From Phoronis australis (taxonomy: Eukaryota; Animalia; Phoronida), in the NCBI GenBank assembly GCA_002633005.1, contig NMRA01000069.1:298422-362421 (forward strand): a stretch of 64,000 nt of DNA, in the 5' to 3' direction. Each line of letters opens with the position of its first letter. The stretch's first letter is position 1. A program made the position numbers and the translations under genes. Under the pieces are notes generated by a model. The model saw only the letters and a list, made by a program, of their open reading frames with translations, did not search any database and was not told the DNA's origin. Positions 11,138 to 64,000 of the stretch are shown here, one piece after another.

Positions 11138-11309
11138 ATGAGTGAGACAGAGCAACAGAGTGACGCGAGTTTTGCACCTCCTTTCGAGGGAGACTCTCTC
11201 AGCAAGGAGTCTCCCAACCACCAACAAGATGTCTCGGAAATCACATGTCTCAAAGAGAATGGGTTAAACGAAGAAACAACAGAAAAGGTCAACGGTGCCT
11301 GCAACGAGG
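11138..11309 (+). CDS. FKBP8: FKBP8 coding exon 1 (acidic N-terminus)
   Basis: Acceptor ttccag|11099, ATG 11138 (MSETEQQSD...), donor G|GTACGT phase 1. The frame is also open from 11099, so the start could lie upstream. Confidence 0.7.
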
Positions 11310-26300: not shown

Positions 26301-26858
26301 TGAAATTGGCCCCAATCTGTTCCTTAGTAGTCAAATCTTTTGAGGACTTCTGAAAAACTGGCCATTCAGTATTCCGTAAATCCAACTTTACAAGTTTTAC
26401 ATTCCATGGCATGTGATTTTATTTGCCCGGCATCGTCTCAACAAATAACGAACTCGCAATTCTCCTCTCTGTTTAGACGATTACACAGCTTTATGGTCAC
26501 TTTAAATGTGGTCTTACGTGATGACTTTCTAAAACCACTTGGAGGTGGTGGCGTGTTACACATAATCGAACTCGTTCTTCTAAGAACGCAGGAACACCTG
26601 ACGATGGCCAGAGAATAGACCGACCGAAACGTCGTGACAATGTAAATAGACAGGAGGTTGGTGTGAATAGACCAAGAGATTGTAATAATAGTCTTACATG
26701 ATCTTGCCGAGCTGGCAAGCCTCAGTGAATGTCCTGCATTCCCTGATGTCGTCTACTTTTCATTTCAGTTCACCAAGTGGGGCATCTTTCTGGGTGCATC
26801 AGTGGCACTTCTTCTGTCTGTCGGCGTGGCAGCATACAAGTATCGTCTGTGGCCGTGA
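11138..26858 (+). CDS. FKBP8: Peptidyl-prolyl isomerase FKBP8 (FKBP38) orthologue, 11 coding exons, 447 aa
   Basis: Exons 11138-11309, 15018-15256, 17441-17588, 17782-17869, 19155-19265, 20379-20453, 20879-20996, 21958-22047, 22965-23042, 23414-23548, 26769-26858. All are GT-AG and phase-compatible (1344 nt). Diagnostic motifs: WTDILGSGSLMKK, FTVGDGDVIQALELSVPLM, KRERGNYLY, KCYGNLAASQLK, NIKALFRKGK, RAMYRKMLG, and TM tail KWGIFLGASVALLLSVGVAAYK. Confidence 0.93.
11430..12370. mobile_element. Nested foldback/MITE cluster in FKBP8 intron 1
   Basis: Outer inverted arms (tcttacgctccacataactatttc ~11565 vs gaaatagttatgtggagcgtaaga ~12186; tatacccatgact vs agtcatgggtata), a hAT-like CAGTGGCGG end at 11812, and a central hairpin 11950-12057. 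A related arm lies at ~47000-47070. Confidence 0.6.
14660..14870. repeat. ~200-bp dispersed repeat (further copies ~13765-13960 inverted and ~23125-23300)
   Basis: Shared ccc(g/a)gaatt(t/c)cc(t/c)gtcatg...ctgggcagaa...gaatt and tggcaaaattctaattaca motifs. Confidence 0.6.
15018..15256 (+). CDS. FKBP8: FKBP8 coding exon 2
   Basis: DEEHSNTTG...DGWTDILGSGSLMKK, donor AAG|GTAACG. Confidence 0.9.
16567..16650. repeat. 11-bp minisatellite (TGTGTATACAA)n
   Basis: About 7 degenerate units; explains the YTHCI/VYTMC ORFs. Confidence 0.85.
17441..17588 (+). CDS. FKBP8: FKBP8 coding exon 3 (FKBP domain)
   Basis: VMRKGKG...EGRLEDGVVVDHDNELKFTVGDGDVIQ; ttgcag| and |gtaacc. Confidence 0.92.
17782..17869 (+). 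CDS. FKBP8: FKBP8 coding exon 4 (FKBP domain)
   Basis: ALELSVPLMEADEIAEVYTDARFAYGEIGR; tttcag| and |gtgaga. Confidence 0.92.
18647..18966. mobile_element. hAT-like MITE (CAGTGGCGGACCTAGG...CCTAAATCCGCCTATG)
   Basis: Imperfect ~16-bp TIRs with G/C-run subterminal tracts; same end family as 11812 and 52422-53785. No clean 8-bp TSD. Confidence 0.65.
19155..19265 (+). CDS. FKBP8: FKBP8 coding exon 5
   Basis: EPDIPKDSSVTYTIELLNIDNPVDITKLSATEKFTLG; tttcag| and |gtaagt. Confidence 0.92.
20379..20453 (+). CDS. FKBP8: FKBP8 coding exon 6 (TPR1)
   Basis: DQKRERGNYLYSRAEFSGAINSYRK; ttccag| and |gtaagt. Confidence 0.92.
20879..20996 (+). CDS. FKBP8: FKBP8 coding exon 7 (TPR)
   Basis: ALTILEDD...LLIDTRVKCYGNLAASQLK; ttccag| and |gtgact. 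Confidence 0.92.
21958..22047 (+). CDS. FKBP8: FKBP8 coding exon 8 (TPR)
   Basis: IEAYDAAIKSCDCVLNIHPQNIKALFRKGK; cctcag| and |gtgagt. Confidence 0.93.
22965..23042 (+). CDS. FKBP8: FKBP8 coding exon 9 (TPR)
   Basis: SLAAKGEVSGAITLLRKALGFEPESK; ctccag| and |gtacgg. Confidence 0.92.
23414..23548 (+). CDS. FKBP8: FKBP8 coding exon 10 (post-TPR helix)
   Basis: ILHVELAKLVNRMKKEEQKTRAMYRKMLGTDNIDGPIYKPNDQTR; tgccag| and |gtaggt. Confidence 0.9.
23501..23760 (+). repeat. ~103-bp tandem triplication of the FKBP8 exon 10 3' end and donor
   Basis: actgacaacattg at 23501, 23604 and 23706; donor-like GGGTAGGT at 23547 and 23650, AGGTATGT at 23751. Confidence 0.8.
24046..24125. repeat. 14-bp minisatellite (AAATGAGTATGAAC)n
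   Basis: About 5.5 near-perfect units. Confidence 0.9.
26769..26858 (+). CDS. FKBP8: FKBP8 terminal exon (tail-anchor TM helix)
   Basis: tttcag|FTKWGIFLGASVALLLSVGVAAYKYRLWP*; matches the FKBP8 KW..GA..VAL..V tail anchor with flanking basic residues. Confidence 0.88.
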   Translation, partial: FTKWGIFLGASVALLLSVGVAAYKYRLWP

Positions 26859-29800
26859 GGTCATCAACGACAGATTTTTGGATGGTGATTATATTTTTCA
26901 CCATAAAAATTCAATTGGTCATTACTACAAGAACTTCACTTCAACAAATCAGATCATAGTGTGGGATTTCTGGAGTGGATTATATGACTCTAGTCAGTCT
27001 TGAAAAACACGGAGCAAGATATCTTGGCTTAGGCAACAGAAATGGTGGACATTGTAGGAATTTATGTATCATTTCTCTCATAGGTCAAAAGTCCCAAGGA
27101 ACCGTCCAGTCAATTTAGTGGCAGCAGGTTTGTGGGTGTAAACTGTGAAGTTAGTGAGCTCTTGGGATTTGTGAGTGGTCTATACAAAACTGTCACGGCA
27201 TAAGCCTTATTGAACGTATAGCTGATTTAGATGCCAGAAAGATTTCATTTTGAACAGTCACAAATTCGAATAATTTCAGAAAGTAGGTAGGTTGTGTCAA
27301 AGGTGAACGTTGATCTCATCACTCAATCACTCTTGGTGTACGGTTGTCGACCAAAACAAGTTGATACACATGTGGCGGAGTGCTTATTTTCAAATTGTAA
27401 GGACTGTATTATCTTGTTGAGTCTTGTATTACAAGCAGTACTTATGAAGGCAGACTGAGTGTTCTCACCAGGTTTTAAGTTGAGCGTGTCAGGTGGAATG
27501 ATGGAATGTTGTCAGTCACAATGTTCAGTTAAGTACTGAAGGTACACCACTGTGTTGTGAAATTTGTTAAGTATAATATTTCATGCTTTTGATGTACACA
27601 GGAGACGTTGGTTGTCATGGTGAAATTTTTTCTAGTATGAGATTGTCACATCGTAATGAACATCCTAACAATGATACTAGAGTCATTGGCTTTCAATATT
27701 TGAACGTTTGGAGTGTTGCCAAGATTGGTGCTATTCAAAACTTCTAAATATCTGGAAATTCCCACTATTACAGCGAGGAGGCATTGTTATAAATTAAAGT
27801 TTTCATGTTGGACACAGTCCATCAAGATAGTGCACGTTTCGTGTTGAATCGGTTGCCATGTTGTTGACCACATTTGGACAATGTCCAGACGTTATACCTT
27901 AACCACATATGTGGATTAAGTGCTGATTTTTTATTTGAACATTGAAGTTTTCTGATTCAGTAGTCTGCTCAACTTGTAAATGATTGTCTTCGTAATCAAA
28001 ATGCTTGTTCCCCCATTCTGTTGTTCTAGCTAGTTTTGCTATTGGTTTAACCTGCTGTGATCTCTCTTGGTGGTCCTAGTTAGTTTCAGACAGCCAAAAA
28101 GTTCTCTTCGATCCATTTTCAGTACGTCTGCGCAATATTTTGAACTGCGTTTGCATTGGTTCAGTGTATTGTTGTCTCTACACCCCAAGTCAATTTTGTA
28201 AATTGCCCCATCTCCTGTCCTCACTCTTTAAGAGTTTGCCCATCTCCCTTCACTCTCTCTTTAAGAGGGAGACCACCATTATAACTTGTTGCACAGTATT
28301 ATAACTGTGATTTCATGACCTGTATGTGTGTATTGTTGTCAATAACTATGATGATAAAGCCCATCTTGTTGACTTTTAGATTTACAAGTTTTAAAGATGA
28401 TACTTAAAAATTCGTTAAGAAATAATTGTCCTGTTAAAAGCATCATTCTAATATCCATAACTTACTTAAAACCAAAATTCAATAAAACTAACATTCAGAT
28501 TTTTACTTATTAAAGGTCGTGTTGGACCCTAGAAAAACGTCTAAATTTGGCTAACTTCAAAACATCGTATCTCAGATAACTCAGCAGTTTTCCAAAATGC
28601 TGTTTGGAATTTTTAATGGTCCACTAGGAGCTACTAAAAATAGCACTGATAAATTTCATGAAAAAAACTCGAGTTGCATAAAACTATTAAGCAAAATCAT
28701 ATTTTAGAGAACTGTAATTATGGAGATCTTGTCTTGAACTGTTACATTAAATAAAATTTGATCACGCTATGCCTACTGTTGTTTTGCTATCAACGTATCT
28801 TTTTTAAACCTTACTTAAAAATACATGGTCACGTGACCCACTTAACAACTGATTGGATAAGAGTCAAAAATAGTTATTCAGGCTTTCTTCTTTCAGAAAC
28901 TATATTACTTTCACCAAGTTAAAATACATTACTTTCACCAAGTTAAAATATATTGTGTCATACATATTTGACTAAATCCGCAGACCTATGTCAATAAGTT
29001 CGTACATAACACAAACAAGGACTTCTGGGATACTTTGGTTCTACTTACTTCACCCTTTATGTGCTGCAAAGTTTTTTTAAATTTAGAAAACAATATGCCG
29101 GAACAGAAAAAAATTGTCAGCAAAAAGGCAATTTTACTTTCAGTGACTGTTTGAAAAATTTATTAAGTACAGCTGTCGGCAACAAACACGTGATGAAATT
29201 TTGAACATTTTTAGCAAACAGCGAGCATTTGAAAAATGAAAAAATAAACTCGATTTGTCTGTGAGATGAGACAATCTAGAATAATTTACAATTAAAATAT
29301 AGATTCATCTGTAACACAACGCATGTCACAAAGACCAACGCAGAGTGTTGATATGCGCCCACTGTGTTCATCATGTATTGCAGATAGGCCTACAAGGGAT
29401 GATTACTAACATTCCCACTAAAGGGGGCACTGCTATTAGACAAAAAATAGCCTCTAAGAGGTGCATAGCAAATCAGAAAAGCTCTCAATAGGTACACACC
29501 TGCCAAGATCGTAAAAAATAAGACTGGTAATAGGGGGTACAGCGGTAGACCCAGCTGTAAACCATGGGTGTCCACACAAAATAGGCCTGAATTTGACATG
29601 CAAGACCAGTGAAAGCAGTTCTTTGTGAGCACTACTCCTTGGTCATGCACCATTCCCAGTTGGTCTGTGTAGCTAAACGCAGCTACAAAAAGGGTTTACG
29701 GTCCTGGCTGAGAAGAGGATTGTTTTATTACTCCCTATGTATAGCTGGGTAGCCTAGCCCTGGATGGAGTGCGAAAGAAGTAGGACTGCCAAGATGAGGC

Positions 29801-32051: not shown

Positions 32052-33350
32052 TACTAAAAACTTTGTTAAAGTACAGTACCTTATAAACTACCAGACTGAT
32101 ACTTCTTTAACTGTTGTGCCTTCCAGTTTATAAGTGATATGTCAACACGGTCAACACTCAGATGATACACCGGGTTATTCAATGCTTAGTTATGAGCACA
32201 AGCATTTGAATCTAGTTGTTTATTACATTTACATGGTCAGAATTGAGTGCCTGTGTCCCCACTGTCCAACTTACTATTCACATAACACAACTTTGTTAAG
32301 AATGGTCCCACAAATTCCTCTCAATGTATTCTCCGCACGGTGTTTTACCAGTTCAACACAGATGTGAAGTAATACCTGTGGTTTGACCATGGTCAGTAAT
32401 ACCCTTTCATTCTCATGAAGTGCATTTAAGAAAGATCAACCAAGACGTTCGGTAAAAAGTGATGGGGCTACTACAGAAATTGTACTGCCACCCACAGCGC
32501 CCTCATTCAGCCATGAGCAACAACAATTAGGATACACTCTCTATTACTTCAACCATCTGAGTAGATATGGTTCTTTTTTGCATGCCCCAGCTCAATACCA
32601 CATAAGTCTGAGAATGGATACCCTGTAGAAAATAGCCATTCTTTCAAGAACACCGTTTCTGCCCGCCAGTACAACTGAATACATCCCAATCATTTGGCAC
32701 CCACCTCCTAATTAGCAAGGCATGCTGGGAAGGGCAGAGTGACTTGAAAACTGCTAATAACAACACAACTGCTCTACATGTTCTGTACTGTTCAACTCTC
32801 CCCAGCTCAAAAGTCTTGTAAATCAAGCTCAGGCTCAATTCATTGCTAATTGAACCATATTCCTTGGTATTTCATCAACTGAGAGAACTGTCTTCCCCAA
32901 TCAGTTCCATATTAAGCACATTGTATTTTCTCTCAACAATTCTTTAAAAAATTCTATGATTGCTGACGGCTGGCTGCACATCCTAGTGTTGCTTCGATAT
33001 CCGAATTATTCGCACACATAATTCCTCATTCCTAATGTGACATATTGTGCTTTTCGCATGCTTTTATCATTTTACTCCTGTCCGTAACAACAAACAAATC
33101 TACATTCAAAGATCCGAAATTAATACGTTGAAGTCGACTGTTGTTTAAGTCTATAAACGACCAGCTGCTTAATGGGCAAGTCCACATTCCGTGGCTCCAT
33201 TTGGTAAGCTGAAGCGCAGTGACTGTACTTAATACATCAGATTGTTACCAAAACATGTTCTCCCTCTATGGAAATAATTAAAATAGCTGGGACATTATCC
33301 ATCAACAGCTCATGGGCAATACCAAGTCTCTCATTAACACATTAAGCGCA

Positions 33351-33545
33351 TTAACTTGTAACATGTGCTTGAACGCCCTCTGCAGGCTGTTGCTTCCTCA
33401 CATACTGCACTGTAGAGTCTTCGTCCAGCTGCGAATCAGGTCTTGTCACATAACTTCTGTTAGAGTCGCCAACCATCAGGCTTATGTTCCCAGAATTGTA
33501 AATGTGAATCTGCTGAGGCTGGTTAGACACGCAGATATTGCTGCT
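33351..33545 (-). CDS. TICAM-like last exon containing RHIM-like motif
   Basis: ttctacag|SSNICVSNQPQQIHIYNSGNISLMVGDSNRSYVTRPDSQLDEDSTVQYVRKQQPAEGVQAHVTS*. Confidence 0.78.
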   Translation of the reverse strand, partial: SSNICVSNQPQQIHIYNSGNISLMVGDSNRSYVTRPDSQLDEDSTVQYVRKQQPAEGVQAHVTS

Positions 33546-36500
33546 CTGTAGAAATAATATGCAACAATATATAATTATTTACCATGCAACAAGGTGGGGA
33601 AGAGAAATGTTTTGTTAAGCCTTCATTCTTGGCACAGTTTCTACTTGACAGCTGACGTGAAGAACACTTATTTGGTAAAAAATTCAGTCCTTATAGCCAA
33701 AACACTCATTTCGTATGAAAATAACGAAGGCATTTAACATTAAGTACAATAGCTGTTTAAAGAACATCTTCCCATTTTATTTATTTATGTATATCAATTT
33801 GTGGTACTGAGGATGTTATTGACAGAAATAGAATAAACAACCTTTTCAGGGTCCATCGATTCAGTGACTGGGAAGGAAGTTTTTAGCCCAGTTTGCTCGA
33901 CTGGCTGTTGAACATTTTGGGCTCTTGGTCTCCCACTTCCTTCATCACCACCTAGAAATACAGATTGTGCAAACAAAAACAAAATGTGAAATGAGATGTC
34001 ATGGACTGTCTGCTGTTCAGTCAAGCAGTGAAATTACCATTAAAAAAAATAAAAGTATTGCAGATGGTCAGGTACACTTTGTACCAGATGTGTGCAGGCC
34101 GCTCTAGGGGGCCCAATGCACTGACCACCTGGAACTATTTTTATGCTTACCATCACCAGAGATCCGAACTTGGAATGATCCATTACAAAGAGAAGAAAAT
34201 TTTCCTGGTAGCGCGTACTTCTACAAAATAGGCTTATGTGATAGAAATATTTTTGTGTTGCAAAATTTAACTGCAAGAAATATTTTTGCATGAATAAAGG
34301 CAAAATAATTATAAAAAGATGAAAAAGAGGAAACTGGAAATCAACTAAGAGGAAACTGAAACCAAAAAACAAGAAATTCTCTTAAAAAAGGAAAATTCCA
34401 AGCCCTGAGAGATGGTAACAGATGGGACATCACATGAATAATAAAATAAGTACCATCTAAGAAGCAAACTATTGACTTAGGTCACTAGGTATGGATAATA
34501 CAATTGGTAAAAAATTGCTCCTCACTCAGATGAAAAGTGGGTTTGCAAACAACTGACTGTTCATCATACCTTGAGAACACGCTCGGCATACAAAGTGACA
34601 CGCTGTGATAATTGACCTATCGCAAGCTCNNNNNNNNNNNNNNNNNNNNNNNNNCTTGCGAGGTCGACAAACAATAAGTTTTATCCGGCAATGCGTTGTT
34701 GGTCAGGTAAAATGGCGGCATGGATATGAAAGTGCGTCAAGAATGTTGCGTTCTGATTGGTCAATTAAGCGGTCACTCGTGATCCTGGCGATAGGTCAAT
34801 TAGTCAAAAAGAAGAGCCTGATCACAGGAAATAACGAAATGCCAGTTCCTTGAAAACTCTGAAATCACCACTATTAAGTTGATTAAAGAACAATTTGAAA
34901 CTAATTTCATAACTGTAATTGTTTTAAATCAAAAGGTGTTTTGGTGATGGAATTCTGAGCTCAATTCCATAAAAGTTATAATCCGTACACCAACAATGAT
35001 GTCGCATCATCACGCGTCACGTTGTTTTTGTTGAACAATGAACCCGAGGTCATGCAACAATCACACTTTATCCAGCGGATAACTTTGAAGTTTTATGCAA
35101 CCCAGCCCTGGTTTGCAGCCACCTTAAAGTTACATAGGACCTAATCATCAAGTCTGTATGTTTCTAAAAATTTGATTTTTGAGTATATACCAATCTTCCA
35201 CTAGATGAGTTGTGTGACCTTGATTTTACGAAAATATACCAAAAAGAAAAGTACATTACACAACAAAACGACATTATCGCTAACATGCCTGATGAAATTT
35301 CGTATGAATGTTCAAGATTAAGTCTCAAAAAAGCTCTAGTTTTCTAAATTATTGTTTCGTTTTCGTTTTAGTTTTATGCAACTTTGAAATTTTTTCATAA
35401 AAATCACGTAAGTCCTATTTTTGATAGCCCCTCGTGCAAAAGTGGAACATTTTAAAAACAGTTCCTAACAGCGTATTGAAGAACAATCATGTATAAAGCG
35501 TAGTATCTGTAGCTCTCATGTCAACACGACCAGCGATTTCTGAGATAGGATGTTCCAAAGTTGGCCAAAATTGGACATTTCCCCCATCCTCCATAACCAC
35601 AGTAAGGAGCAAGAAATGAAATATTTTCTAACTTTTTATGTAGGCTGGACCATAACACCTTTAAATTTGCACCACAACTTTATAATATTGGAATGGAATC
35701 CAGCCATCAAGCACAACACGCAGGTACAGTAGGTAAACAAGATCAACAACGCACCCACATAGATCTAAAACCCAATATCAAGGGGGAATAAAAATTGGTC
35801 AGACATCAAAACCATTTGCCTGGACTTCAAACCCAGTCAGCTGGACTGCAGAACCAAAGGGCCGGTGGTCAAACAGGTTGTCCAGACTTCAAAACGCAAT
35901 GACCTCACCCACAAATAACTAGTTGGCTGGACCCAAAACACGATGGCCAGTGCTATAACCAGGTGGCCGGCGATCAAACATGATGGCCAGACTTTCTAAC
36001 AGACACGCTTTGAACGTTTCGAAGGATTCACGTGACATCTAGTGTATATTTTTTGCACCTGTTTGTTTCTTTTAATAAAAATCAGCGATTTGTTCCACCA
36101 TTGTGTTTGAGCACAGGCCAATCCCTTCTAGGTCTGGCCAATCAGATTTTTGGGTGCAGCCATCTGGTTTTGAGGTACCAGCCAACCTGTTTTGAGGTCC
36201 GAACACCAAGTTAGTACACAGGCCATTAGGTTTTGAAATCCACCCAGCTGGTTTTGAAGTCTGGGCAAGTAGTTTTGAAGTCCAACCAATTGCTGATTCC
36301 GGCCCATGAAGAGTCCAGGTGTAATACGTTCACTGTTTCACCACAAGATAGTATATATCGTGCCACATACCTCTCGGCGATGTGGAGTCCTTTTGTGACG
36401 TCTTTGTCCTTTGGCCACTATCTAAATTCAAAATCAATCTATTTTAAGCAAAATTAAAACAGTCACATGTCTTGTATCTTTAGACATAGTCTGAACTAAA

Positions 36501-39500
36501 TTTTTTGAATATGTGCGACATTTTTTCCGACCCAAGCATCAACTTCTTTAACGGAGCATTTCATTCTGTTCATCTGACTAATAAAGGAAAATCACAATAT
36601 GCTCTATCAAGATAGCATTCTATTAATAAGAATATCAAGACCAAGCCCAAAATTGCAAATTCGAAAATGACAAACATACACATTGCCTGTGACTAAATCT
36701 GGTAAAAGAAACAGAACCCTATCAAGGTAAGGAACATTATGATACCAATGTTATATCAGTATAATACCTAACTTCGATTTTCATTTTAGCCAGCAAAATG
36801 CAGCTTTAATTCATGCAGTATACAACAGGAAGCTCGTTTCTTCAATGAAAGGGTAATAATAACAATAGTAATAACTGAAATGAACAATAATGTTACAAAT
36901 AATGTGTGGTCGACTTAGTTTGTGCGATTTTCAATCCATCAGACATTGATGCCAAACTTTACGATTCAAAAATTGTGGAAAACACTCACTAGAAATTTGC
37001 TCCCAAAGTTGCAATGTCAAGGGCTTCATCTATTGTGTGAACATACCCAGAGAAAAGTTTTGAGTGTTTCTTCCAGAAATGTTTAACTATAATAATTTTT
37101 CGCTTCACATACTTCACAGGGACAAATGGTGATGTGCGCCACCATTCAGGAATTCTTAAGTCCATGCAATACATCTAAGTTATGACTTTAGCTTAACGTC
37201 CAATCACTGATTTTTGAAGTTCCCAGTTTGAATGCTTTGGGCCACGGCAGTCTAATCTTTTTATACCAGATCGAACACAAATTATTGTTGTCATTTTCTA
37301 TGTTCGTGCAAACTCAAGAGAAGAGTCAATTATTTTATGCCTGAGTACATAACGGCTGAAATGCATAACTTTCTAGTCCTAGTTTGCACTAAATGACCCC
37401 ATCATTGAGGCTAAAAATTCAAGTCTGAACTCGAAATTTCAAATTATTACCAAGCCTGGGTGTTGTCATATCTTGAATTTGGCCATTTGTGTGTCTTGCT
37501 ATGTACACACTAAAATTATTTAAAGATACCCTTCGCGCTAGTCTTTCTTTTCTGAACAAAAACGAATCCCTGAACCGAAAAACCAAAGCTGAATATTCTT
37601 AATCGTTTCAGCACAACCGCGAACATGCCTTAAGTCTGTAATGACCATGTGCTCAGACATATTGTGAAGCTGTTATATGTTAGAATCAACATGCCATAAT
37701 CCCCCAGACTATCGCAGGAGGGTGGTGTGTAGCAAACAAGGTATCGCCACATACCCGGGTGATCACTACCATCGGCTGCTCCTCGTGGGTCCATATCAGC
37801 AAGAGGTGGACCAGTGTGGCCATGCGTGTCTGCTGCGTCTTCTTCAAGGTCCGCACTGGCACCCAGCATCGACTGCCTACTTGCTGTAATAAAAAATACA
37901 AACTTGTAAAGACTGACTGTTGGCTTGGGTGCTAAGTGTTGCATCAAGAGTGAGATTCAAAACCAGTGAACATGTTGTCACTGTGAACAGACACCATAAT
38001 GAGTCTTGCAGTTTTTAGTGCAAGCCCATTGCACTGAGGCTGCTACACACTGGTGTACAAAGGGGGGTACTATGGGGGGCCACGTCCCTCCTGCTCAGTC
38101 AAACAAACCCTCCCATTGTAACTCATGGACACCCTATTCATTGCAAGTGCCCCCTAGATGTCACCCATGTCACCTTCTCCCCCACTTCCCTGGTGGGCAA
38201 CAACTTCATGCTTGGTCCCACACTTGCAGCTATGCCAGCACTACTAGATGCGTCTTACAGAAGTATTGGGTCTTTGTTAGTAACTAGACATTTGAAAACT
38301 ACAGCTTCTATAAAAGCGGTATCTTTATAAGTGAATGCACAAAAGCTTCTGATCATAACATAGAACTGTAGCCCAGTAATGCCAACTCACACACGTGACC
38401 AATGTATTCTATTATTAGTGCTTGCAAACCCAAGATCAGCCGTGAAAGTTTTCACTGAGTATTTCCAGCAGCCTGTTTGACTATGTTTTGATCGGGAGTT
38501 GTAGATATCAAATCAAGTCTAATTTCATTGCTTCATTTTCATTTTGTTATCATTGTTCATCAAGCAAGACTCTTGAGGTATGGTTCTGTACAATAGCAAT
38601 TTCTCGCCATCCCAAAGGGCTGTCTAATGATATTACCCTTATGGAATTCAGCTGAAAAACGGCGGAGTTGCGAAACGTTTTAATGACCACAAAGTCCATA
38701 GCAAATACACACACCGGAACAAACGAATGCGAACAACTGTCATGCATGTGCGGCGCAACCTCAGTGGCCACGAGATTGGAGTTGGCATTCCAGGTCCAGA
38801 GTTCTATGCCTCATAACAAAGGCTTCTTCCCCTCACTAGATTCAGGCATTGAGTTTTGAAATAGGGAGCACTGAATCCACTAGGGGGTGTCAGGGAGACT
38901 ACACTCTTACCCGACGCAGGTACTCATATGGGTCTAATTGTCAACAGATTTCAGCTCTTCATCCATCCATACAACAGAAAGAAACCAATTCTTCACTAAC
39001 GCCACCTAGTGAATCCCGAGCTTACTGTTGCCAGGACCACCGAAAGTAAGCCTTAGGTTGCACAATCTTACAATTAAATCACAAAATTTTCAAATGTTAA
39101 CCTTTTTCTTCGAATTTGAACGAGTGCGTTGCTTCTTCATTGGGATGCGGAGTTACGCCAACAGCCTGCACCGGTGCGTGATCCTTTAAATAAAAACACA
39201 GTCATTGTCAAATCACTGGTGAAATCCAGAACCATTACATTAATTAACTTCAGAGCTAACCTTTCTTCTTCTGACTACAGGCAAACTGAAACAGAACAAG
39301 GATAGTTAATGAAATACATACATGTTATGTTCAAAAATTGTACTTATTTACCTGCCCCAGTTGCGTACTTTTAGTATGCCTTTGAGTAAATGATGTTGCT
39401 AAAAAGTATCTCAGGAATTTCTCTATGTCGAGCATCAAAATGTTACACTTCGTATAATATATTTGTGAACGCTGAATGGCACTTTTCAGTAACAATTGAT

Positions 39501-42500
39501 GCCACAGACAGAGCCACAATTCACAAACTTGAAATTCTTTGACAAAGACAAGACAGTACGAACACTGACTGGAAATAATGCTTGTGTGAAGATGTTTGCT
39601 TGAAACTTACAGACATGGCCATACAGCCTTGTGGAAGGGGAGAATTCAGTGTTTTCCACAGTAAAAATGGCAAACTCGAGGGAAAATGTCATTTGACTGT
39701 ACATCAGATGGGATGTCCAAGATACAGTAAAGTAAACATTTTCATAAATTTGGACAAGGGGCAATTCATGTTTTCAAGTATGTACACCAAGATTGGCGTT
39801 TCAAAAGACTTGTTTTTCAGTGACACTTGCAAACAGGACAGTTGTCTTATTTTAGCCACTAGGTGTCACCATAAGATAATTTAACTCAAAAATTCTAGAT
39901 ATTATGTAAAAGCTATACAGCTGTCTCAAAAAGTTTTGTTAATGAAAGAATTTTCAGACCATGGAGAACATTGAATGAAAGTGATGCGGCCTTTTTGTTT
40001 AGCTGGTCCAGGGCTCGACATAACGAGCTGCAGGATGCATTTGAGACCCGAAATTTGAAATGCGAGCTGAGATTTTGGCCAACTCACAGTAGTCAGACTT
40101 AGGCAAGACGAATTTTCATGCCAAAGGCCAATTACATCTAAGTGCACTGATGTGAAACTTTTAATAACCCTAGAACCAATGACATAATTGGCGTACCAAT
40201 TGTCAGCTAAAGGCGACCACTGAATTAAATGGACAATTGTCTTCTACTCAGGAAACTTGAATAGCTCACTTGCGAGTTTCTCGCTAGTCACTCTGACGTC
40301 ACCGGAAAGGGGGCAAAACCCGCCATATTGCTCTTGTTTTGCCCCGAGTCTTTGCTACACACGAAAAAACTTACTGGAGTTCTTATGGTGAATTTAACGC
40401 TTAAAACGTTAAAACAACTTAAGATATGGTAGATGGGTCGTGGAATAACTGTGATTAGACGAAGAAAATGTGACCTTGTCATGTAGTGCGAAGCTGTGAA
40501 CGGACTGAAATTGGAACTTAACCCGCTCTAGGCCTGAATGGCGCAGGCATACAGGGGCGATAGTGTATCCCCATAAAAAGATATTCACTTCAAAATACAG
40601 CAAATGAAATCAAATGAAACATGCATGTGTGCACATGAAGTTATAATTAACACATACCCTGACTCTGGACACAATTTAGTCTACAAATAACTTTAGCATA
40701 TTCATGAAAACCTCGCGGTTCTCTCGAGTTTCTCTCACTACAGAGCCGCCATTTTGAAGAAGTTACGTGAAATCACGCCTGTTGACGAACAAAAAGTCCA
40801 AGGGACACAAATCTTACAAATTTCACTTGATATTTTCTCATGCTATTTTGCAAGTGTCACGCGCCAGGTCACGCGCCAGATCTCGCGCTTCGCTCAGTCT
40901 CGCGCTAGCCTTTGCCTCGCCTTACTCAGTTGAACTACTTGATTGTGGTAATCGCGCGCGCGGACAAAGTTAACAGTAACCACAAAGTGGAGTTGGAATT
41001 CTTCGCCTAAGTCACCTGAATTCCCGTATATATGCTTCATCGAAGATATACTTAGAAGCAGAAAGAGTCACTGAAGAAAGTAAGAGCCTTTTAGGTGCTA
41101 ATTTTAGGTGTAGAATGTATTTTCGACGAGGTGAAAACTTTACCAGTGAGCGGATTTCGCCTACCGCCCGTTTAAAATACACGGGACGTAATTAGTACAG
41201 AACGCGATAGAACGTATTGTAGTGCGAATCTGAAGTTCATTTGCCATAACAGCAATGCTTTTGGACATTTTTCGAACTAAACGGCTAAAAACTCAAAGAC
41301 AATAACAGAATACACTCTGCTACCGTATTGGGCAAATGACCAAACGACAAGCTTTTGCCCCACTTCCCGTGACGTCAAAGTTAAGTCTCACATAATCTCG
41401 CGTTATTGTTATAAACTCGCAAAAGGCCTATTTCCATCTGCCTAATGTCTGTCAAGAAAATTGCGAGCTGGGGATTTTAGCCAGGTAGCTAACAACGACC
41501 TAGTGATTTGCATATCATCAATGACTGTGTTTGTAATATTTTTAACAGGTTGCAAGCCATTCAAATGTGTCACAAGGGCAGGCTAACAGGTGCAACCGAC
41601 ACATTATAACAGGTTTAGGAAGACACTGCAGATGCCCCCTTTCTTCAGAATCATGAAAACTTCCAGCAAATAAAAAATTAAAAATCCATCATTCGGTCCC
41701 TAACTGAAAAATATGCTTACGTTCATAGGTATAGCACCAAGTACGAAAATTTTGCTTTCACTTAAGATTATGTCAATCAACAAGTTTTCTGACACACAAT
41801 TTGCCTTAACTTCCCAACCGTAACACTAATGAATGAACAATACCAACCGTCATGTAACGGTCCAATAACGGTCTTGGCCATGAACCCCCTTTCCCCACAC
41901 AACAAAATTAATAACGAAGGGTATGCAAGCTTTTGATGTTACCCTCAGTAAAACGACACAGATAAGTGCCAATGTTGGAGAGATATTTATCTGAGTTCCA
42001 AAGAAATAATTATAAGATGATCAGCGACATATTAAACTTTTTAAAAATTTTGTTGTTACTTAAATGCCAACTGAGCATCAAAACTGCAAATGTCTGACAC
42101 GTTTTGTCAGTAGCAAATTAGTTTCATTGGTCACCAATTCCTCAGAGATTTATCTCATAGTTCCGTGCTTTCAAAAGCTTAAGGAAATTATGGTAACATA
42201 GACAGATTCAAAACACCTTGAATGACTCCGAGACTATTTCGAGAGGAAAATTTTCGAAAATTTTGCAAATATAACAGGTGCAAGGCCCTACAAGGAAATC
42301 GAAAACTTCCGAGTGTATTTTAAGACTTTTTGGAAACGCCCTCGACAGCGTTACATGCAAATTGCTCACCCAAAGTTTTCTTGCACAGAAACACAAAAAC
42401 ACAGCGTTAGGCTAACAAGCACATAAGAAGCAGAACATCTTAATTACCTTTCCATTAAAACCTTGATCAAGTAACAGTAACTTTAGCAGCATCCTCTCTT

Positions 42501-45500
42501 TTTTCATTTCCTCTTCCTGTCTCTTCTTCCTCTCCTCCTTTTTTCTTTGCACCGGATGACTCGGATCAGGTCGGTACGTTTTGTAGTTATCTGGTGACGT
42601 AAGTCCAAACACAGTGCAGAGGTGTTTCTTGTAATAGTAGCCCTTCTCCTCTAGGCCGGCGATCGGTGCAATGTGGAAGGGTATCTCCTGTAAATCTTTC
42701 TTCACCGTCGGGTAGTACGGGATGAAGAGATTTTTATACTGCGTGTCCATCAAACACTTGTACAGTGCAGCATAATTTGCTTGTTTGAACATCTCGCCCC
42801 CGTAACGATTGAATAACCTCATGGTCTGACACAGCTTCTGTGACATGTAGAGCAGATAGACAGTGCTGTGCTTAAAGGCATATTCATACGTCTCCAGATC
42901 ATGTTTGAAAGCAGGACATATACTCACATCATCATACATACACCCAACCAGTCCATAAGTTCCCAGCTTCTCATGCAACCTTTCTGCACCTACTCTATCC
43001 TCCTCAATGAAAATCAGAGTGTAATCATATTCTGTTGGACTATGTGCCTCGATCACTCCATTTGGTGGCTGGGAATACACAGCTACAATGGAACAGTCAG
43101 AACGTGATTGACAATCATGGTTCCAGCAAGGCTTTAGCATATAAGAAATGCTGCCTAAAAATGCAACTGCAGAACAAAAGTGAAGTACATGAAAAATGAA
43201 ATAACTCGAGCAAACGGTGCGAGGCCCTCGACCTAAATGTGTAACTGCGATAAATATTCACTTGTTTGGAATAATCTCTAAAATTTGGAACACTGACATT
43301 CAAGTCGAAATTGCACTTATTGATGCTGACGATGAGGAAATGGGCAAATTTTTCATTCATCATGTTCCTTAAATTTGGGAGACTGCATTTTGCATCAACT
43401 GAATTTGAAAACTCTAACCAACACTCAGCAACTTCTAAAATCTTCCAATAAGGCCGCTGACACGTTGGCACGTGTTCCCATAGAATGTAATGTCGAGGTA
43501 AATATTTTCCAACCATGCCGGGATCTTCTCAAAATTCGGATAGTGCATATGGCTTCAAACGTTATAGTTTTAAGATCACAATATTATTTGCGAAAATAGA
43601 ATTCACATTTACGTCGCTTAGTTTTGTAAATTTGCAACTGGTGGCAAAAGCGTAGTTAGTGTGTTGTTCTAAGACAAAAATCACCCTAATTTTGGTTTAA
43701 AACCGAAAACCGACTTCGGGGTTATGAAACGAAACAATCTTGTCTGAATTTTTGTCTGTCTTAACAGAGCCGGAATTTCGGTCTTAACAAATATCATGAA
43801 AAGGGCCCCTGGGCTTGAACTCAAATCAGCCATTAGGACAGGCACTCATCCCCATTCTTGTTAAAGCCATGTTCAGCTTAATGCCCAAACCAATTTTGAG
43901 ATCTCAAAGTGAAGGCCTGGGGCATTAACATTGATGAATACCGTTAGGTGGTTTTAACCAAAAAGAAAAATTGCACATTCTCACAACTCATATGACTATC
44001 ACGTGGGAACAAAACAAGATTTTGGGATTGTCAGAAAAAAATTATTAAAATTCCCAAAAGGGGGAGTTCGGAACAAAAAGCGTAGTTGGTTCTAGTCCGC
44101 GGCCCACACAAATGTAGGCTAGTGACCTTATGACGCGGGCATAACCACCTGATCAATGTTCATCAACGACCCATTACGTTGCACACATTAATACTGCCAG
44201 CACTCACCCTACAAGCAAAACAAAGCATTGAAATGTGCTCACGACTGCATCGTAAACTGTATGCTTCTAGGAGTGTTGATCAGTATCACAAAAAAAAGGC
44301 TCTGTCGATTCCCTAACAGGAATCAATTTGCCAAATTTCATCAAATTTCCCTCAGGAACTTTAAAGATGTGGGGGAAATGAAAATACAATTTCCAGTACA
44401 AGGTACAACAGTAGTGGGATACATCTGACTGAAGTTGGTCATTGTTCTTACCTTCATAGGAATACACTTGGCAAAATTTCACAAAGTTCCCGATGGACGT
44501 TTAGGAGATATAGCGGGTGGAAAAAAATGGCATTAGGGGGGACCACAGTATTCAGGGCCGTTCGAAAATCAACGTCAGTCGCGTTGTCAAAAGCAAAACA
44601 AAAATATCTGACTGGCAATTTTCTTGATCTTCTGAGAATTTAGGCAGAGGTTAACGCCAAGAATAGAGACACAAAAATATTACACAAATGGCCACTAGGT
44701 GGCACACTCTATGTCAAATCTAACCGAAATTAAAAAGGGGATGTATTCTAAATAGAAACCTATCATGCAATCCTGTCACAGAACAATGAAGAAACAGAGG
44801 TTAACAAAAAATAATAAATTGCCACTAGGGGGCATACCAGAACTTAGTCAGATGCATCCAAACCAACCCTGCCTTTTGACATCACAGTTTTCCATGATTA
44901 CACAGCGTATGGGNACTCACACTACTGTCACTGTGATACGGGTCACCGACTCCAGCCATTTTCAGCTTACAACACTCTAAACAATCCCTAAATCCAACGT
45001 AGTTGAGTTCTCTACTAACCTATCTTGCCGCAGAATACTCGCCGATAGAAAGTGGTGGCGACAATTGTTGAAAAACAGCACAAAACAAAAGTAGAATAGA
45101 ACAGATTTGCACGGTAAAGTCAACGCAAAACCAAGTGGCAGGAAACGCTTGCCTCCTAAAACGTCACTTCCGGAGTAGCAGACGAGTGTTTAATAAAATT
45201 ACGAAAAGCTGTAATTAAATGGAAAATATGTCTAGGATAACCAACCAACCTTATTTTAGCTCAAACTGGCATGCAAAAAGGTTGCCTTCGCCTTTAAAGA
45301 TGTGGGGGAAATGAAAATACAATTTCCACTACAAGGTACAACTGTAGTGGGATACATCTGACTGAAGTTGGTCATTGTTCTTACCTTCATAGGAATACAC
45401 TTGGCAAAATTTCACAAAGTTCCCGATGGAGGTTTAGGAGATATAGCGGGTGGAAAAAAATGGCATTAGTGGGGACCACAGTATTCAGGGCCGTTCGAAA

Positions 45501-46074
45501 ATCAATGTCAGTCGCGTTGTCAAAGGCAAAACAAAAACATCTGACTGGCAATTTTCTTGATCTTCTGAGAATTTAGGCAGAAGTTAACGCCAAGAATACA
45601 GACACAAAAATATTACACAAATGGCCACTACGTGGCACACTCTATGTCAAATCTCAACCGAAATTAAAAAGAGGGTGTATTCTAAATAGAAACCTATCAT
45701 GCAATTCTGTCACAGAACAATGAAGATACAAAGGTTAACAAAAAATAATAAATTGCCACTAGGGGGCATACCAGAACTTAGTCAGATGCATCCAAACCAA
45801 CCCTGCCTTTTGACGTCACAGTTTTCCATGATTACACAGCGTATGGGATGGTGGCAACATGGGACATTTTGCAGAGTTGAACTATGTTAACATTTTCTTC
45901 CATCTCAGTGTACTAGTATATTAACTCCTAGGCTGTATTTTGGCATGGTAAACAACCTCAATCTGTCTGGTTTTATATTTTGAGCAACGTTTTGACCCTA
46001 AATCCCTAGTCTAATTGCTCACTTTCTCTTCTGGCGTCAACTTCTAAATCCTCATCAGGCAAACAGGCAGACAT
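33351..46074 (-). CDS. TICAM/TRIF-like TIR-domain adaptor with C-terminal RHIM-like motif, 6 coding exons, 400 aa
   Basis: Exons (minus) 46074-46023, 43082-42448, 39183-39102, 37883-37755, 33951-33842, 33545-33351. All are GT-AG with intron phases 1,0,1,1,0, giving 1203 nt. An in-frame TAA lies 3 codons before the ATG. The TIR (YDYTLIF..ED...A..L.EKL...G..G, AFKHSTVYLLYMS, FIPYYP, IAGLEEKG.YY) follows the TICAM pattern (YNFVILH..AD...A..V.EKL, AIDHSAFIILLLT, VIPFLP, LVRLDEHS..F). Confidence 0.8.
33842..33951 (-). CDS. TICAM-like coding exon 5
   Basis: tttctag|(G)GDEGSGRPRAQNVQQPVEQTGLKTSFPVTESMDPEK|gttgtt; phase 1 to 0. Confidence 0.72.
34610..34801. mobile_element. MITE (ATTGACCTAT...ATAGGTCAAT); inverted second copy at 46583-46776
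   Basis: TIRs and shared internal gtcaagaatg.tgcgttctgattggtca; contains the gap 34630-34654. Confidence 0.7.
35790..36295. repeat. Foldback built from ~21-bp subunits (gacttcaaaacca / tggttttgaagtc)
   Basis: The left arm 35790-36000 is the imperfect reverse complement of 36120-36295. Confidence 0.6.
37755..37883 (-). CDS. TICAM-like coding exon 4
   Basis: ttattacag|(A)SRQSMLGASADLEEDAADTHGHTGPPLADMDPRGAADGSDHP|gtatgt; GC-rich island, phase 1 to 1. Confidence 0.78.
39102..39183 (-). CDS. TICAM-like coding exon 3
   Basis: tttttatttaaag|DHAPVQAVGVTPHPNEEATHSFKFEEK|gttaac; phase 0 to 1, weak donor. Confidence 0.68.
40261..41431. mobile_element. Non-autonomous DNA transposon in TICAM-like intron 2
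   Basis: Ends atagctcacttgcgagttt and aaactcgcaaaaggcctat, with subterminal inverted tgacgtcac.ggaa..ggggcaaaa; CpG-rich interior. Confidence 0.55.
42448..43082 (-). CDS. TICAM-like coding exon 2: TIR domain and charged helix
   Basis: Lies within ORF 42412..43140; acceptor ccattgtag|, donor AAG|GTAATT; clear paralogue at 63137-63756. Confidence 0.9.
44359..45847. repeat. ~555-bp near-identical direct duplication (44359-44913 / 45292-45847) joined at an N
   Basis: The copies are near-identical; n at 44914; the unique spacer ends ...CCTTCGCCT|TTAA. Confidence 0.85.
46023..46074 (-). CDS. TICAM-like coding exon 1 (MSACLPDEDLEVDARRE)
   Basis: Strong acceptor ttgtttttgtttttag| at 46198, upstream in-frame stop, and donor A|GTGAGC in phase 1 matching the TIR exon. 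Confidence 0.68.
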
Positions 46075-46582: not shown

Positions 46583-46776
46583 AATTGACAGACCTATTGC
46601 CAGGATTTTGAGTGACAGCTTAACTGACCAATCAGAACGCAGCATTCTTGACACTCCTTTGTTTCCAAGACGCCATGTTCCCCGACAAACAACAAGTTGT
46701 CCGGTAAAACTTTCTGTTTGTTTGTCGGGTACCACGTGACTTTTCGCAAGGAGGTGGAGCTTGCAATAGGTCAATT
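46583..46776. mobile_element. MITE, second copy of the 34610-34801 family
   Basis: aattgacagacctattgc...ttgcaataggtcaatt with shared internal sequence in reverse orientation. Confidence 0.7.
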
Positions 46777-48103
46777 TGAGCGCATGTGTGAAGACCCCGT
46801 GGTCTGTTTCATGAAAAGCGATTATAACTTAGAACAGAAATTTGGTCTTACGTTCCCAATTCAAAATTGTAAAATGAAGGTTTCGTAACGTAGTTATTAA
46901 TACACCACTGCCTGGAAATAATTTGTACATTTTTTCAGTAATTAAAAATGATGGGTCTATTCTCTGATAGTTAATTCTTTGGCTCAAGTGAGTTTGGATT
47001 ATTTCTCAGAAATATTGATGTAGAGCACAAGACCAAACTTCTGTCTTTAAGTTTTAAGTCACTTTTCATAAAACAAATCCCTGATTTGACGTTTTCAAAA
47101 TCGGACAATATGCTTTAGTAAACATATAATGTCTGCATTCTTCTCCATTTTGAAAATGAGGAATACATTTCAATAGTCCAAAGTAATAACAAGAACAATT
47201 ATATCTTTAGTAGAATTTGACAACAGTGTAGAGCTGCCATCTTTTTAGTCAATACCGAATCTCTGCATAAACAATGTAGCTGATTGAGGGGGTCCAAGTT
47301 ATGGCCCACTTGATACACTACACAATGCACGAATGCAATGTGTGCTGTAATTTTGCCAGTGCCATATCTGATGGTTGGTGGGGTGTTTTTTTTAAGTGGT
47401 CACTAATTTTTTAAACAGGTCTGTCCATAAAAGAATCGGCAAATGTCTGGACTAAAATAAAATCAAGCCTACATGTTGAAAATAAATCGGACCCAGTTGC
47501 ATGGCCAACAAAATATTATGTATATTGTGTGCACAAACTATCTCAGTACATTCAGTTAAGCCACTGAAACTCCTCGGTGCCTTCATTCCGGTTTGATTTC
47601 AATCTGGTGAATTGCCGTATTGAAATCAACCTTACAAAAACACTCGGCCCCTGAAATTTCATATTAAACCCTCTCCTATGGTGGGCACTGGGCACGATAT
47701 GTTTTTTCTCTTAAAATGTCAGTCTTTGCCTTAATAATATCATGACTCAAATCCCCATTTGGTTTGATTACAGTAACCAGAGAATTGAACAAAGAGCTTG
47801 GTCCATCCACTCTTTTGATGACGTCTAGTTTCTCTAATTCTTTCAGTATCTTATTTGCTTTCAGACACTAATAAAAAGAAATTCATTTATTTTGCACTAC
47901 ATCTTGAATACACACGTACTATGAATTTGAAACTTCAGCTAGTAATTAGTTAGCCAATGTGCTCGAGGTCAAACAAAGATGTACAGAGGGTTATGGGAAC
48001 CCGTCTGCCAGCCACGACAACAGGGGGCAGCAGGCAGGGAACTAGGAGTCTAGTCACCATTTGTATCTTTTGAATGCAATTATGGAAACCTTTGGATACA
48101 GTG

Positions 48104-48854
48104 TAGACAGTAAGCCTTGTCTCTAGTGAACTACAGACGGTGAAGCTCCTATAGACGCTTCCTACACCAGAAGCTTTTCGGCAAATGATACGTCACACTG
48201 ATCAAAAGTCACGTTGTCATGAGTACCTTTTGCACATAGAGAAACACCTTAGGAAGCCGTCAATGTCTTTAATTCCTTCCAACTCGAACAAATACTTCCG
48301 TTATCAAACTTTTTCTTGGAACAGTCATTCGTTCAGTTCCCCAAATCGGCAACTGACCATTTTTATTATTGCGCGCGGCAGTTGGTATGACGTCATATCC
48401 CCTGACGTACACTGTGTAAAAATGGCCAGTTTCCTATTTTGGGAACTGAACGACAGACGGCTCCAAGAAAAAGTTTGATAAAAAATCTCGAGTATTTGTT
48501 CGAGTTGGAAGGAATTAAAGAAATCAACGGCCTCCTAAGGCTTCCCTCTTTGCGCAAAAGGCACTTGGAACAACATGACTTTGATGTATTAATCAGTGCG
48601 AGGCATAATTGGCCAAAAAGGCTGTGGCGTATGAAGCTCCTACAGTAGACAGTGGTAGGATATAGTGGTCCCTGATTTAGAGAACCAGGCAATCAGTGAA
48701 TAATGGGTTCGTTATTTAGTGGATGAAACTGGTTCTCTAAATCAGGGACCGCTATATCCGACCAGTGCCTAGACAGTGACCATCGTCCCACTGGCACCGA
48801 CTGTAGGAGAGTCATCATCTCTACTAGCCAGCTACAGAAGGTGGTCACTGTCTA
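48104..48854. mobile_element. TAG...CTA foldback element (same family as 33-961) with nested 126-bp TAG...CTA MITE at 48646-48771
   Basis: Termini TAGACAGT and ACTGTCTA; degenerate 9-bp TSD GATACAGTG (48095-48103) vs GATGCAGTT (48855-48863). The inner MITE has ~40-bp TIRs (ggtccctgatttagagaaccag). Confidence 0.75.
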
Positions 48855-54419: not shown

Positions 54420-54676
54420 NNNNNNNNNNNNNNNNNNNNNNNNNNNNNNNNNNNNNNNNNNNNNNNNNNNNNNNNNNNNNNNNNNNNNNNNNNNNNNNNN
54501 NNNNNNNNNNNNNNNNNNNNNNNNNNNNNNNNNNNNNNNNNNNNNNNNNNNNNNNNNNNNNNNNNNNNNNNNNNNNNNNNNNNNNNNNNNNNNNNNNNNN
54601 NNNNNNNNNNNNNNNNNNNNNNNNNNNNNNNNNNNNNNNNNNNNNNNNNNNNNNNNNNNNNNNNNNNNNNNNNNNN
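54420..54676. other. Assembly gap (N run)
   Basis: 257 N; the ORFs spanning it are meaningless. Confidence 0.99.
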
Positions 54677-63136: not shown

Positions 63137-63724
63137 TTAACTAATTATCTTCTGAGGATAAAGAGCTACCTTCTGTTGCCTTTCTTCCTTTGCTTTTTCA
63201 TATCTTTCCAATCGTTCCCACTTCTTCTTAGGAATTGGGTGGTCCTCGTTGATTCGGAATGTTTTATTATTATCGTGTGGTTGCAAGCCAAATACTTTAC
63301 ACATATGCTTTTCGTAGTAGGGACCCTTCGCTTCCAGGCCAGCGATCGCATCAATGAAGACGGGCATATTCTCCACATCCGCCTTCGTATTTGGGTAGTA
63401 CGGGATGAAGAGGTTTTTATAGTTCTCGTCTTTCAAGCACTTGTACAGGGTCGCGTTGCTTACGTGATCCAATTTACGGTCTTTGCGCAAATCTTGACAC
63501 ATAGTTTGGGACATCTACAGGAGATAAACAGTGCTATGCTCGAACGCATACTGATACACCTGCATCTCCCCTGTTACCGACGAACGCATAATACTAGGGT
63601 CGTTATATAAACATCCCACCAGTCCATAACTTGTTAGCTGTCTGTGCAGATCCATGGCACCGTTTGTATCAGCGTCGGCGAAAATCAGCGTGTAGTCATA
63701 CTCCTGGGGTTCACTCTGTGACAT
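63137..63724 (-). pseudogene. TICAM-like TIR-only paralogue with one in-frame TAG (nonsense allele, pseudogene or base error)
   Basis: ORFs 63515..63967 and 63137..63514 are the same frame split by TAG at 63517-63515, where the paralogue has TAC (HSTVYLL*MSQ vs HSTVYLLYMSQ). Acceptor ctttccctttctag| at 63756; candidate ATG at 63724 (MSQSEPQEYDYTLIF). Confidence 0.8.
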
Positions 63725-64000
63725 TTGTGACGCACTGCTTGAGGTTGGAACTTGTCCTAGAAAGGGAAAGAAAAGAGTTAAGATGGATAATATAATGCAA
63801 GTGCCATTTACACACAGACTTGTCCTAGAACAAGTTACTCCTTGAACGAGTTGCCGCTTGATTTGAAGCCTGGGCTGAGTGGAGGTGTACATTAAAACTT
63901 GTGCAACTTGCCGCACTTGGGACACCTTTCTCCACCTTATCGATCGGTTCACTGTCGTCCTTTGCACCCGCCTTACCGATCGGAGGTTATTGTGTGTGTG

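Follow-up and report, generated by a model that had tools for sequence, protein, structure and literature searches.

A candidate TICAM-like adaptor with a TIR domain and a RHIM-like tail in a Phoronis australis contig and in the brachiopod Lingula anatina

TRIF (TICAM1), a protein of about 712 amino acids (aa), consists of an N-terminal domain, a TIR domain with a proline in its BB loop, a charged helix, a disordered linker and a C-terminal RHIM, and it also carries a pLxIS motif for IRF3. Its relative TRAM (TICAM2) has a short N-terminus bearing a myristoylation glycine and ends after the helix, without a RHIM. The alpha-E helix of TRAM is described as extended (PMC11745336). In amphioxus a single TICAM-type TIR adaptor with a RHIM (bbtTICAM) is reported to drive RHIM-dependent NF-kB signalling through RIP without inducing interferon (PMC6043800), and in insects the cRHIM proteins PGRP-LE and Imd carry an amyloid-type motif that lacks the canonical glutamine (VHIG; PMC9531809). 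Here we describe a gene on the minus strand of a 64,000-nucleotide stretch of DNA from Phoronis australis (contig NMRA01000069.1, positions 298,422 to 362,421; hereafter the window), located at 33351 to 46074, whose product appears to join a TICAM-type TIR domain to a distant RHIM-like motif. An earlier reading of the same letters, referred to below as the original prediction, had proposed such a protein.

The layout of the window protein, likely 417 aa long, is that of TRIF from the TIR domain onwards (BB-loop proline, charged helix, disordered linker and C-terminal RHIM-like motif), and the original prediction was right that the TRIF N-terminal domain is missing: about 33 aa precede the TIR. 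The window protein differs from TRIF additionally in lacking a pLxIS motif and the canonical RHIM tetrad, and its gene likely has seven coding exons; the pLxIS pattern, as given in PMC9440496, occurs neither in the 417-aa model nor in either of the two Lingula anatina proteins described below. Because the N-terminal domain, pLxIS, the TRIF-group BB-loop pattern and the canonical tetrad are all absent, the sequence is not that of TRIF proper, whereas wider TICAM membership is supported by profile comparison. TRAM, the top structural match, shares the extended alpha-E helix and the short N-terminus, but it ends where the window protein goes on to a RHIM-like motif, and its N-terminal myristoylation glycine is absent from the window protein. 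The amphioxus TICAM likewise combines a TICAM-type TIR and a RHIM in a single adaptor; on the other hand, the family formed by the window and Lingula proteins occurs in a brachiopod and gave no lancelet match at E<=0.001 or E<=0.01, so that it is distant, and its N-terminus of about 33 aa in the window protein contrasts with a lancelet TICAM TIR placed at residues 206-333. The insect cRHIM proteins come close to the core of the Lingula motif, but they combine theirs with PGRP or death domains and have no TIR.

We read the gene as encoding a short TRIF-like adaptor of likely 417 aa, which would pass a receptor signal from its TICAM-type TIR to a RIPK1-like kinase via the RHIM-like motif, and we give this reading, built on sequence comparison, structure prediction and analogy, a probability of about 0.58.

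Gene structure and expression

The original prediction joined six minus-strand exons in frame into a protein of 400 aa. All six are flanked by AG and GT and do join in frame, but RNA reads indicate that there are likely seven coding exons and 417 aa. The evidence came from reads of three stranded runs picked by species label (X6, X7 and X8, about 18-19% of each used) and from X5 contigs; the RNA derives from other individuals (one exon-2 contig shows 9 differences in 302 letters). The features of the gene are as follows.

46023..46074, minus strand: coding exon 1, ATG at 46074, 17 codons; joint 46023>43082
42448..43082, minus strand: exon 2, 635 nt, whole TIR and charged helix; RNA depth 15-22, confined to the gene's strand
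43035-42601, minus strand: predicted TIR domain, about aa 34-178, within exon 2
42915-42913, minus strand: BB-loop proline, Pro74, within exon 2
42561-42466, minus strand: charged helix, about aa 192-223, within exon 2
39102..39183, minus strand: exon 3, 82 nt, low-complexity linker; both ends in RNA joints
37755..37883, minus strand: exon 4, 129 nt, low-complexity linker; acceptor from RNA, donor 37755 placed by GT and phase
36371..36421, minus strand: likely extra exon, 51 nt, 17 codons, phase 1-1; donor from an RNA joint, acceptor placed by its AG
33842..33951, minus strand: exon 6, 110 nt, low-complexity linker; both ends in RNA joints
33351..33545, minus strand: last coding exon, stop TAA at 33353-33351; joint 33842>33545
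33447..33509, minus strand: RHIM-like motif, aa 366-386 of 417, in the last exon; core LMVG at 33479-33468
32500..33350, minus strand: 3' untranslated region, at least this long; covered at a depth of 9-28 by RNA of the gene's strand alone; possible AATAAA signals at 32224 and 31694

Four of the five originally predicted junctions are present in reads on the gene's strand (counts for X6/X7/X8): 46023>43082 (8/8/8), 42448>39183 (5/4/8), 39102>37883 (1/2/10) and 33842>33545 (12/21/12). The same four joints are present in the X5 contigs, and the joint reads share one mate orientation, the one that most stranded libraries give for minus-strand RNA. The fifth, 37755>33951, is not found among the 15 of 59 joints listed from the three runs and X5; its acceptor is instead reached by an unpredicted joint, 36371>33951 (5/11/18 reads), with a short side of at most 54 letters compared with 65-72 for the other four. 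Since this joint was read, an AG stands at 36422 and the frame stays open, an extra in-frame exon at 36421-36371 is likely, with a protein of 417 aa. The remaining joint, 37755>36421, follows from splice signals and phase and is not among the reads. Two introns use weaker donors (GTTGTT and GTTAAC, at 33841 and 39101 on the minus strand), and both are backed by RNA joints.

RNA depth is 21.8/15.3/21 within exon 2 (42517-42993) and falls to 0.46/0.55/0 in the next intron (41563-42039), therefore an unspliced form reading through to the stop at 42412, which the original prediction had considered, is at most minor. At the other end, an in-frame TAA lies three codons 5' of the ATG, which rules out an N-terminal extension and with it an N-terminal domain of the TRIF type; the letters suggest an acceptor at 46198 as the probable start of exon 1. 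The gene is thus real and transcribed, with splicing that leads from the TIR exon to the motif exon through one inferred middle joint.

Intron 1 holds a 556-base direct duplication (44359-44913 and 45292-45847, 97% identical) beside one N at 44914; the assembly has likely fused two haplotypes here. Additionally, intronic and upstream repeats at 34100-35600, 40000-41450, 44900-45300 and 46590-46800 show RNA depth on both strands with many loose ends, which we attribute to reads that stem from other genomic copies.

The TIR domain and its relatives

A HMMER search of 1,835,955,588 representative sequences at E<=0.001 returned a sole relative of exon 2, the uncharacterized Lingula anatina protein XP_013408459.1 (LOC106172349), with E 6.5e-12 and 33% identity over query residues 16-196, that is, over the TIR and helix only; it clusters with a second Lingula protein, XP_013385928.1 (LOC106155575). 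XP_013408459.1 was found via its TIR and helix alone, yet it has a RHIM-like motif after the helix. The Lingula pair shares the layout of the window protein, with 32-33% identity over TIR and helix, but its motif lies about 40 aa past the helix rather than about 140, its IHVG core stands in exact RIPK3 register, its acidic tail is longer and it has no TRAF6-type motif. Word-seeded homologue searches recovered no relative among 102 candidates with exon 2 and one among 2,975 with the family profile, the Lingula protein itself; no lancelet, hemichordate, echinoderm, mollusc or annelid relative appeared in the full scan at E<=0.001 or in the family-profile search at E<=0.01, and a metagenome scan gave 234 pattern matches and no relatives.

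The family profile comprises four sequences: exon 2, the two Lingula proteins and a paralogous TIR exon found in the window.

63170..63756, minus strand: paralogous TIR exon, 52% identical to exon 2, same splice phases; in-frame TAG at 63517-63515; without the BB-loop proline

Over 192 codons this exon and exon 2 differ at a proportion of nonsynonymous sites (pN) of 0.34 against a synonymous proportion (pS) of 0.77, the latter saturated, and this ratio suggests that the paralogue was long under selection and then recently broken, or else that the stop is allelic or erroneous. Neither profile nor tblastn searches of the window found downstream exons or a motif exon for it; a 257-base gap lies at 54420-54676.

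Against 177,635 PDB sequences the family profile gave seven matches at E<=10, six of which are TICAM1 or TICAM2 constructs (1.1e-4 to 2.4e-3; TICAM1/TRIF 1.1e-4 to 1.2e-3), with an alignment that spans beta-A through the last helices. No MyD88, TIRAP, SARM1, TLR or SEFIR sequence appeared in that search at E<=10, though such structures are in the PDB. The seventh match was an unrelated peptidase (E 0.39). Influenza polymerase, actinin and MafB entries, matched over short helical stretches in the PDB searches with exon 2 alone, the two window copies or the Lingula protein, were rejected as chance, and Pfam DUF6937 and EAD10 matches below their cut-offs were set aside.

Structure prediction points in the same direction. 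AlphaFold2 with a four-row alignment gave the strand and helix order of a TIR followed by a 30-residue C-terminal helix (pLDDT 56.9, pTM 0.55, low confidence); a single-sequence fold (pLDDT 41.4) was discarded. TRAM came first both in Foldseek (E 4.8e-4, the sole match below 0.001) and in VIA-align (Z 10.6, root mean square deviation 4.6, 140 aligned), and TIR or SEFIR domains filled 13 of the 15 top VIA-align rows as well as most top Foldseek rows. The VIA-align runners-up were SPARTA (9.9), SARM1 (9.6), Hydra TRR-2 (9.6), TIR-STING (9.3) and TRIF (8.3-8.9). Exon 2 is therefore likely a TIR fold as modelled. The comparison with TICAM1/2, MyD88 and SARM1 that the original prediction had proposed places it nearest TICAM in the profile and in three fold searches, but with a narrow structural margin and a weak model.

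Several results weigh against the TICAM assignment. The Pfam TIR and SEFIR models match neither exon 2 nor the Lingula protein; exon 2 alone finds no TIR among PDB sequences; a profile built from exon 2 and its paralogue without Lingula reaches no TIR in the PDB either, so the closeness to TICAM by profile holds only with Lingula; and the Lingula protein by itself reaches TRIF only at E 0.53. The structure model has the low scores given above, other TIRs lie within about one Z unit of TRAM with TRIF itself lower still, and the lead of TRAM may come from its long helix. TRAF6-type motifs number two in the window protein (0.53 expected) and none in Lingula, and are not claimed as a feature. In an Atlas comparison, used as a lead only, exon 2 matched a mollusc SEFIR/CIKS cluster first (0.88) and TICAM2 third (0.87); the Lingula protein matched TICAM2 first (0.89, 176/256 features).

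These results bear first on the idea that a separate invertebrate TIR lineage gained a RHIM-like motif independently, giving a protein that works in a TRIF-like way and is not a strict homologue. The modest TICAM E-values (1e-4 at best) with their dependence on Lingula, the 11-20% identity to TRAM and TRIF in fold searches and the absence of relatives in molluscs, annelids or echinoderms at the thresholds used would fit it, and invertebrate RHIMs are reported in many architectures (PMC4262963). The BB loop also has its proline without the TRIF-group pattern E-D-F-x-x-P-G: aspartate and proline are kept, glutamate, phenylalanine and glycine are not, and the spacing is one longer; the proline itself is retained by exon 2 and Lingula, and the broken paralogue has lost it. 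The source that marks the TRIF group by this pattern places lancelet and lamprey TICAM outside that group too (PMC7075850). Against independent fusion stand the lack of any other TIR family in the profile search, the TICAM match through the last helices and the fact that three search types rank TICAM2 first or near first, and we regard it as improbable.

A second idea, that exon 2 encodes a NAD-cleaving TIR or a SEFIR/Act1-type adaptor whose tail motif is incidental, is supported by the first Atlas match and by SARM1, SPARTA and TIR-STING close behind TRAM in the fold searches. However, the catalytic glutamate treated as the defining feature of NAD-cleaving TIRs (PMC7075850) aligns with alanine in the window protein, valine in the paralogue and histidine in Lingula, in a register taken from the profile alignment, so that this TIR seems to be a scaffold rather than an enzyme; and for the SEFIR type, Pfam gives no SEFIR match and the profile search neither SEFIR nor SARM1. 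This idea is very improbable. A TICAM-type TIR thus remains more likely than any other type on sequence and model, and orthology to TRIF is putative.

The RHIM-like motif and the genomic neighbourhood

The RHIM-like motif lies in the last exon at 33509-33447, where the original prediction had placed it, with the LMVG core and a spacer two residues longer than in RIPK3 and in the Lingula motif. An 18-residue stretch of the RIPK3 RHIM, with chance estimated from 20,000 shuffles, aligned ungapped with the Lingula protein at a score of 49 (0/20,000 shuffles) and, with a two-residue gap, with the tail of the window protein at a score of 35 (8/20,000; 39/20,000 for the whole protein). The Lingula motif in turn matched the window tail at a score of 37 (6/20,000) and ranked the motif exon first among the 2,933 stop-free peptides of the six window frames; ten of the 15 Lingula residues recur in the window motif, which has its two-residue insertion ahead of the core. 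The conservation in orthologues on which the original prediction had staked the motif is thereby borne out by a Lingula relative that carries one. A three-motif profile, driven mainly by Lingula, returned RIPK3 RHIM constructs as the best three of its four PDB matches (E 0.045-0.12). The motif flanks contain 70-73% disorder-promoting residues and the linker of about 140 residues 73%.

The evidence is uneven between the two species, and part of it counts against a RHIM in the window protein. The similarity covers about 18 residues in a disordered region, clear in Lingula and visible in the window only with the two-residue gap: ungapped, the RIPK3 stretch scores 24 against the window tail (1,447/20,000 shuffles, not significant), and among the six-frame peptides it ranks the motif exon second, below an intronic repeat (42). 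For these reasons the window motif stands above chance only as part of an expressed protein beside its Lingula relative. The window and Lingula tails as a whole are not significantly similar (1,251/5,000 shuffles), and the window motif alone has no PDB match at E<=10. The scan with a RHIM model that the original prediction had called for was negative, the Pfam RHIM model (PF12721) matching neither the exon, nor the motif peptide, nor the Lingula protein; the Pfam TIR and RHIM models thus both miss the window and Lingula proteins. Pfam also missed the RHIM of lancelet TICAM in a published TICAM survey (PMC9440496). The canonical core (V/I)-Q-(V/I/L/C)-G, as defined in PMC9444067, is replaced by LMVG in the window and IHVG in Lingula, and supplement 8 of PMC12119088 lists no vertebrate RIPK1/3 tetrad variant that has lost the glutamine, as LMVG has. 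On the other hand, insect cRHIMs with histidine for glutamine (VHIG) are reported still to form amyloid (PMC9531809). A four-copy complex prediction of the motif (score 0.01) gave no verdict, and a pattern fitted to the motif (one match in the window, none in 40 simulated windows) was given no weight, having been built after the motif was seen. Taken as sequence, the family carries a RHIM-like motif, of which the window copy is the more degenerate.

Such degeneracy raises the alternative that the TIR is TICAM-related while the motif has decayed in the window species, leaving a TRAM-like bridging adaptor or a dampening TIR decoy, with the Lingula RHIM still working. The insertion together with a glutamine-to-methionine change in the core and the lack of significance of the ungapped match would fit such decay, as would a top structural match, TRAM, that itself has no RHIM and a neighbouring paralogue that is broken and has no motif exon in the window; amphioxus, moreover, is reported to have inhibitory TIR adaptors (PMC6043800). 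Yet ten of 15 motif residues are held in common with Lingula while the remaining tail does not align, an insertion of even length would preserve the in/out alternation of a beta-strand, and the sole difference in the motif exon among the 40 listed of 977 rows of differences, at 33450, is synonymous; the missing myristoylation glycine further argues against TRAM-like bridging. We consider decay unlikely, if somewhat less so than independent fusion.

The Lingula motif (XP_013408459.1, residues 273-291) also has a weak match to Pfam EAD10, a bacterial effector-associated domain (E 0.028 for the whole protein, 0.00035 for the peptide), possibly through a shared amyloid-like pattern.

Elsewhere in the window, a multi-exon FKBP8-like gene at about 11138-26960 on the plus strand is convergent with the TIR gene; one of its exons matches the Pfam FKBP domain (E 0.00093), and TPR-like exons and a C-terminal hydrophobic segment were read by eye. 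In human, FKBP8 and TICAM1 both map to 19p13, far apart, which makes this a synteny lead only, and no report of FKBP8-TICAM linkage was found in the literature searched. Long imperfect inverted repeats at 48146-48771 and at 30-304 with 693-964 belong to a dispersed family, with copies near 30-960, 2540-2800 and 48130-48650, which probably represents non-autonomous DNA transposons.

Proposed signalling and phylogenetic range

Under the preferred reading of a short TRIF-like adaptor, each signalling step would follow by analogy from better known relatives. The structure predicted for exon 2 is that of a TIR extended by a long C-terminal helix, with TRAM and TRIF as its nearest counterparts. The TIR of an activated Toll-like receptor would seed a head-to-tail filament of the window TIR through the BB-loop proline, as TRIF and TRAM structures suggest (PMC11745336). 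The helix and the 140-residue disordered linker would present the RHIM-like motifs, which the filament would concentrate, and the concentrated motifs may then nucleate a cross-beta assembly together with a RHIM-bearing RIPK1. The expected output is NF-kB activation without MyD88, after the example of amphioxus TICAM (PMC6043800), and there would be no interferon arm, given that the protein has neither the TRIF N-terminal domain nor pLxIS. Lingula and zebra mussel are both reported to possess a RIPK1 whose RHIM is conserved (PMC12119088); in supplement 4 of that study Lingula appears once (XP_013410819.1), in the RIPK1 column and not in the TRIF column.

Published accounts place this branch in chordates. 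One dates the first appearance of TICAM to amphioxus and knows of no TRIF homologue outside chordates (PMC6043800), a second states that the TRIF cascade arose only in chordates (PMC9334734) and a third that TRIF-like TIRs are confined to chordates (PMC7075850). A survey of TICAM places the root of the family in lancelets, and 11 of its 15 supplementary files contain no Lingula (PMC9440496). A study of two nemerteans states that no RHIM proteins were found in them (PMC9835746), and Kajava et al. describe varied invertebrate RHIM proteins in a main text from which the word TIR is absent (PMC4262963). The literature searched, which covers few subscription journals, contains no account of a protein that joins a TICAM-like TIR to a RHIM in a brachiopod or any other non-chordate. 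The original prediction had made an extended range depend on the host being a non-chordate; that extension now depends on Lingula, identified as such by its database record, and no longer on the host of the window, because Lingula is a brachiopod. By sequence and predicted structure, a TICAM-like TIR-to-RHIM adaptor is likely present in at least one non-chordate.

A broader and more tentative proposal, to which we assign slightly less than even odds, is that the TICAM-to-RIPK1 amyloid arm predates the protostome/deuterostome split. A short TIR-helix-RHIM TICAM would then have existed in the bilaterian ancestor and survived in brachiopods and in the window animal beside a RHIM-bearing RIPK1, and it would have been overlooked since Pfam detects neither the TIR nor the glutamine-less RHIM. 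If this is true, the MyD88-independent branch moves back to the bilaterian ancestor, the RHIM-bearing RIPK1 of Lingula and molluscs gains an upstream partner, and the vertebrate RHIMs become linked with the glutamine-less cRHIMs of insects. Additionally, the two proteins provide a natural motif pair, one in RIPK3 register and the other with a two-residue insertion, with which the tolerance of a signalling amyloid to change would be directly testable.

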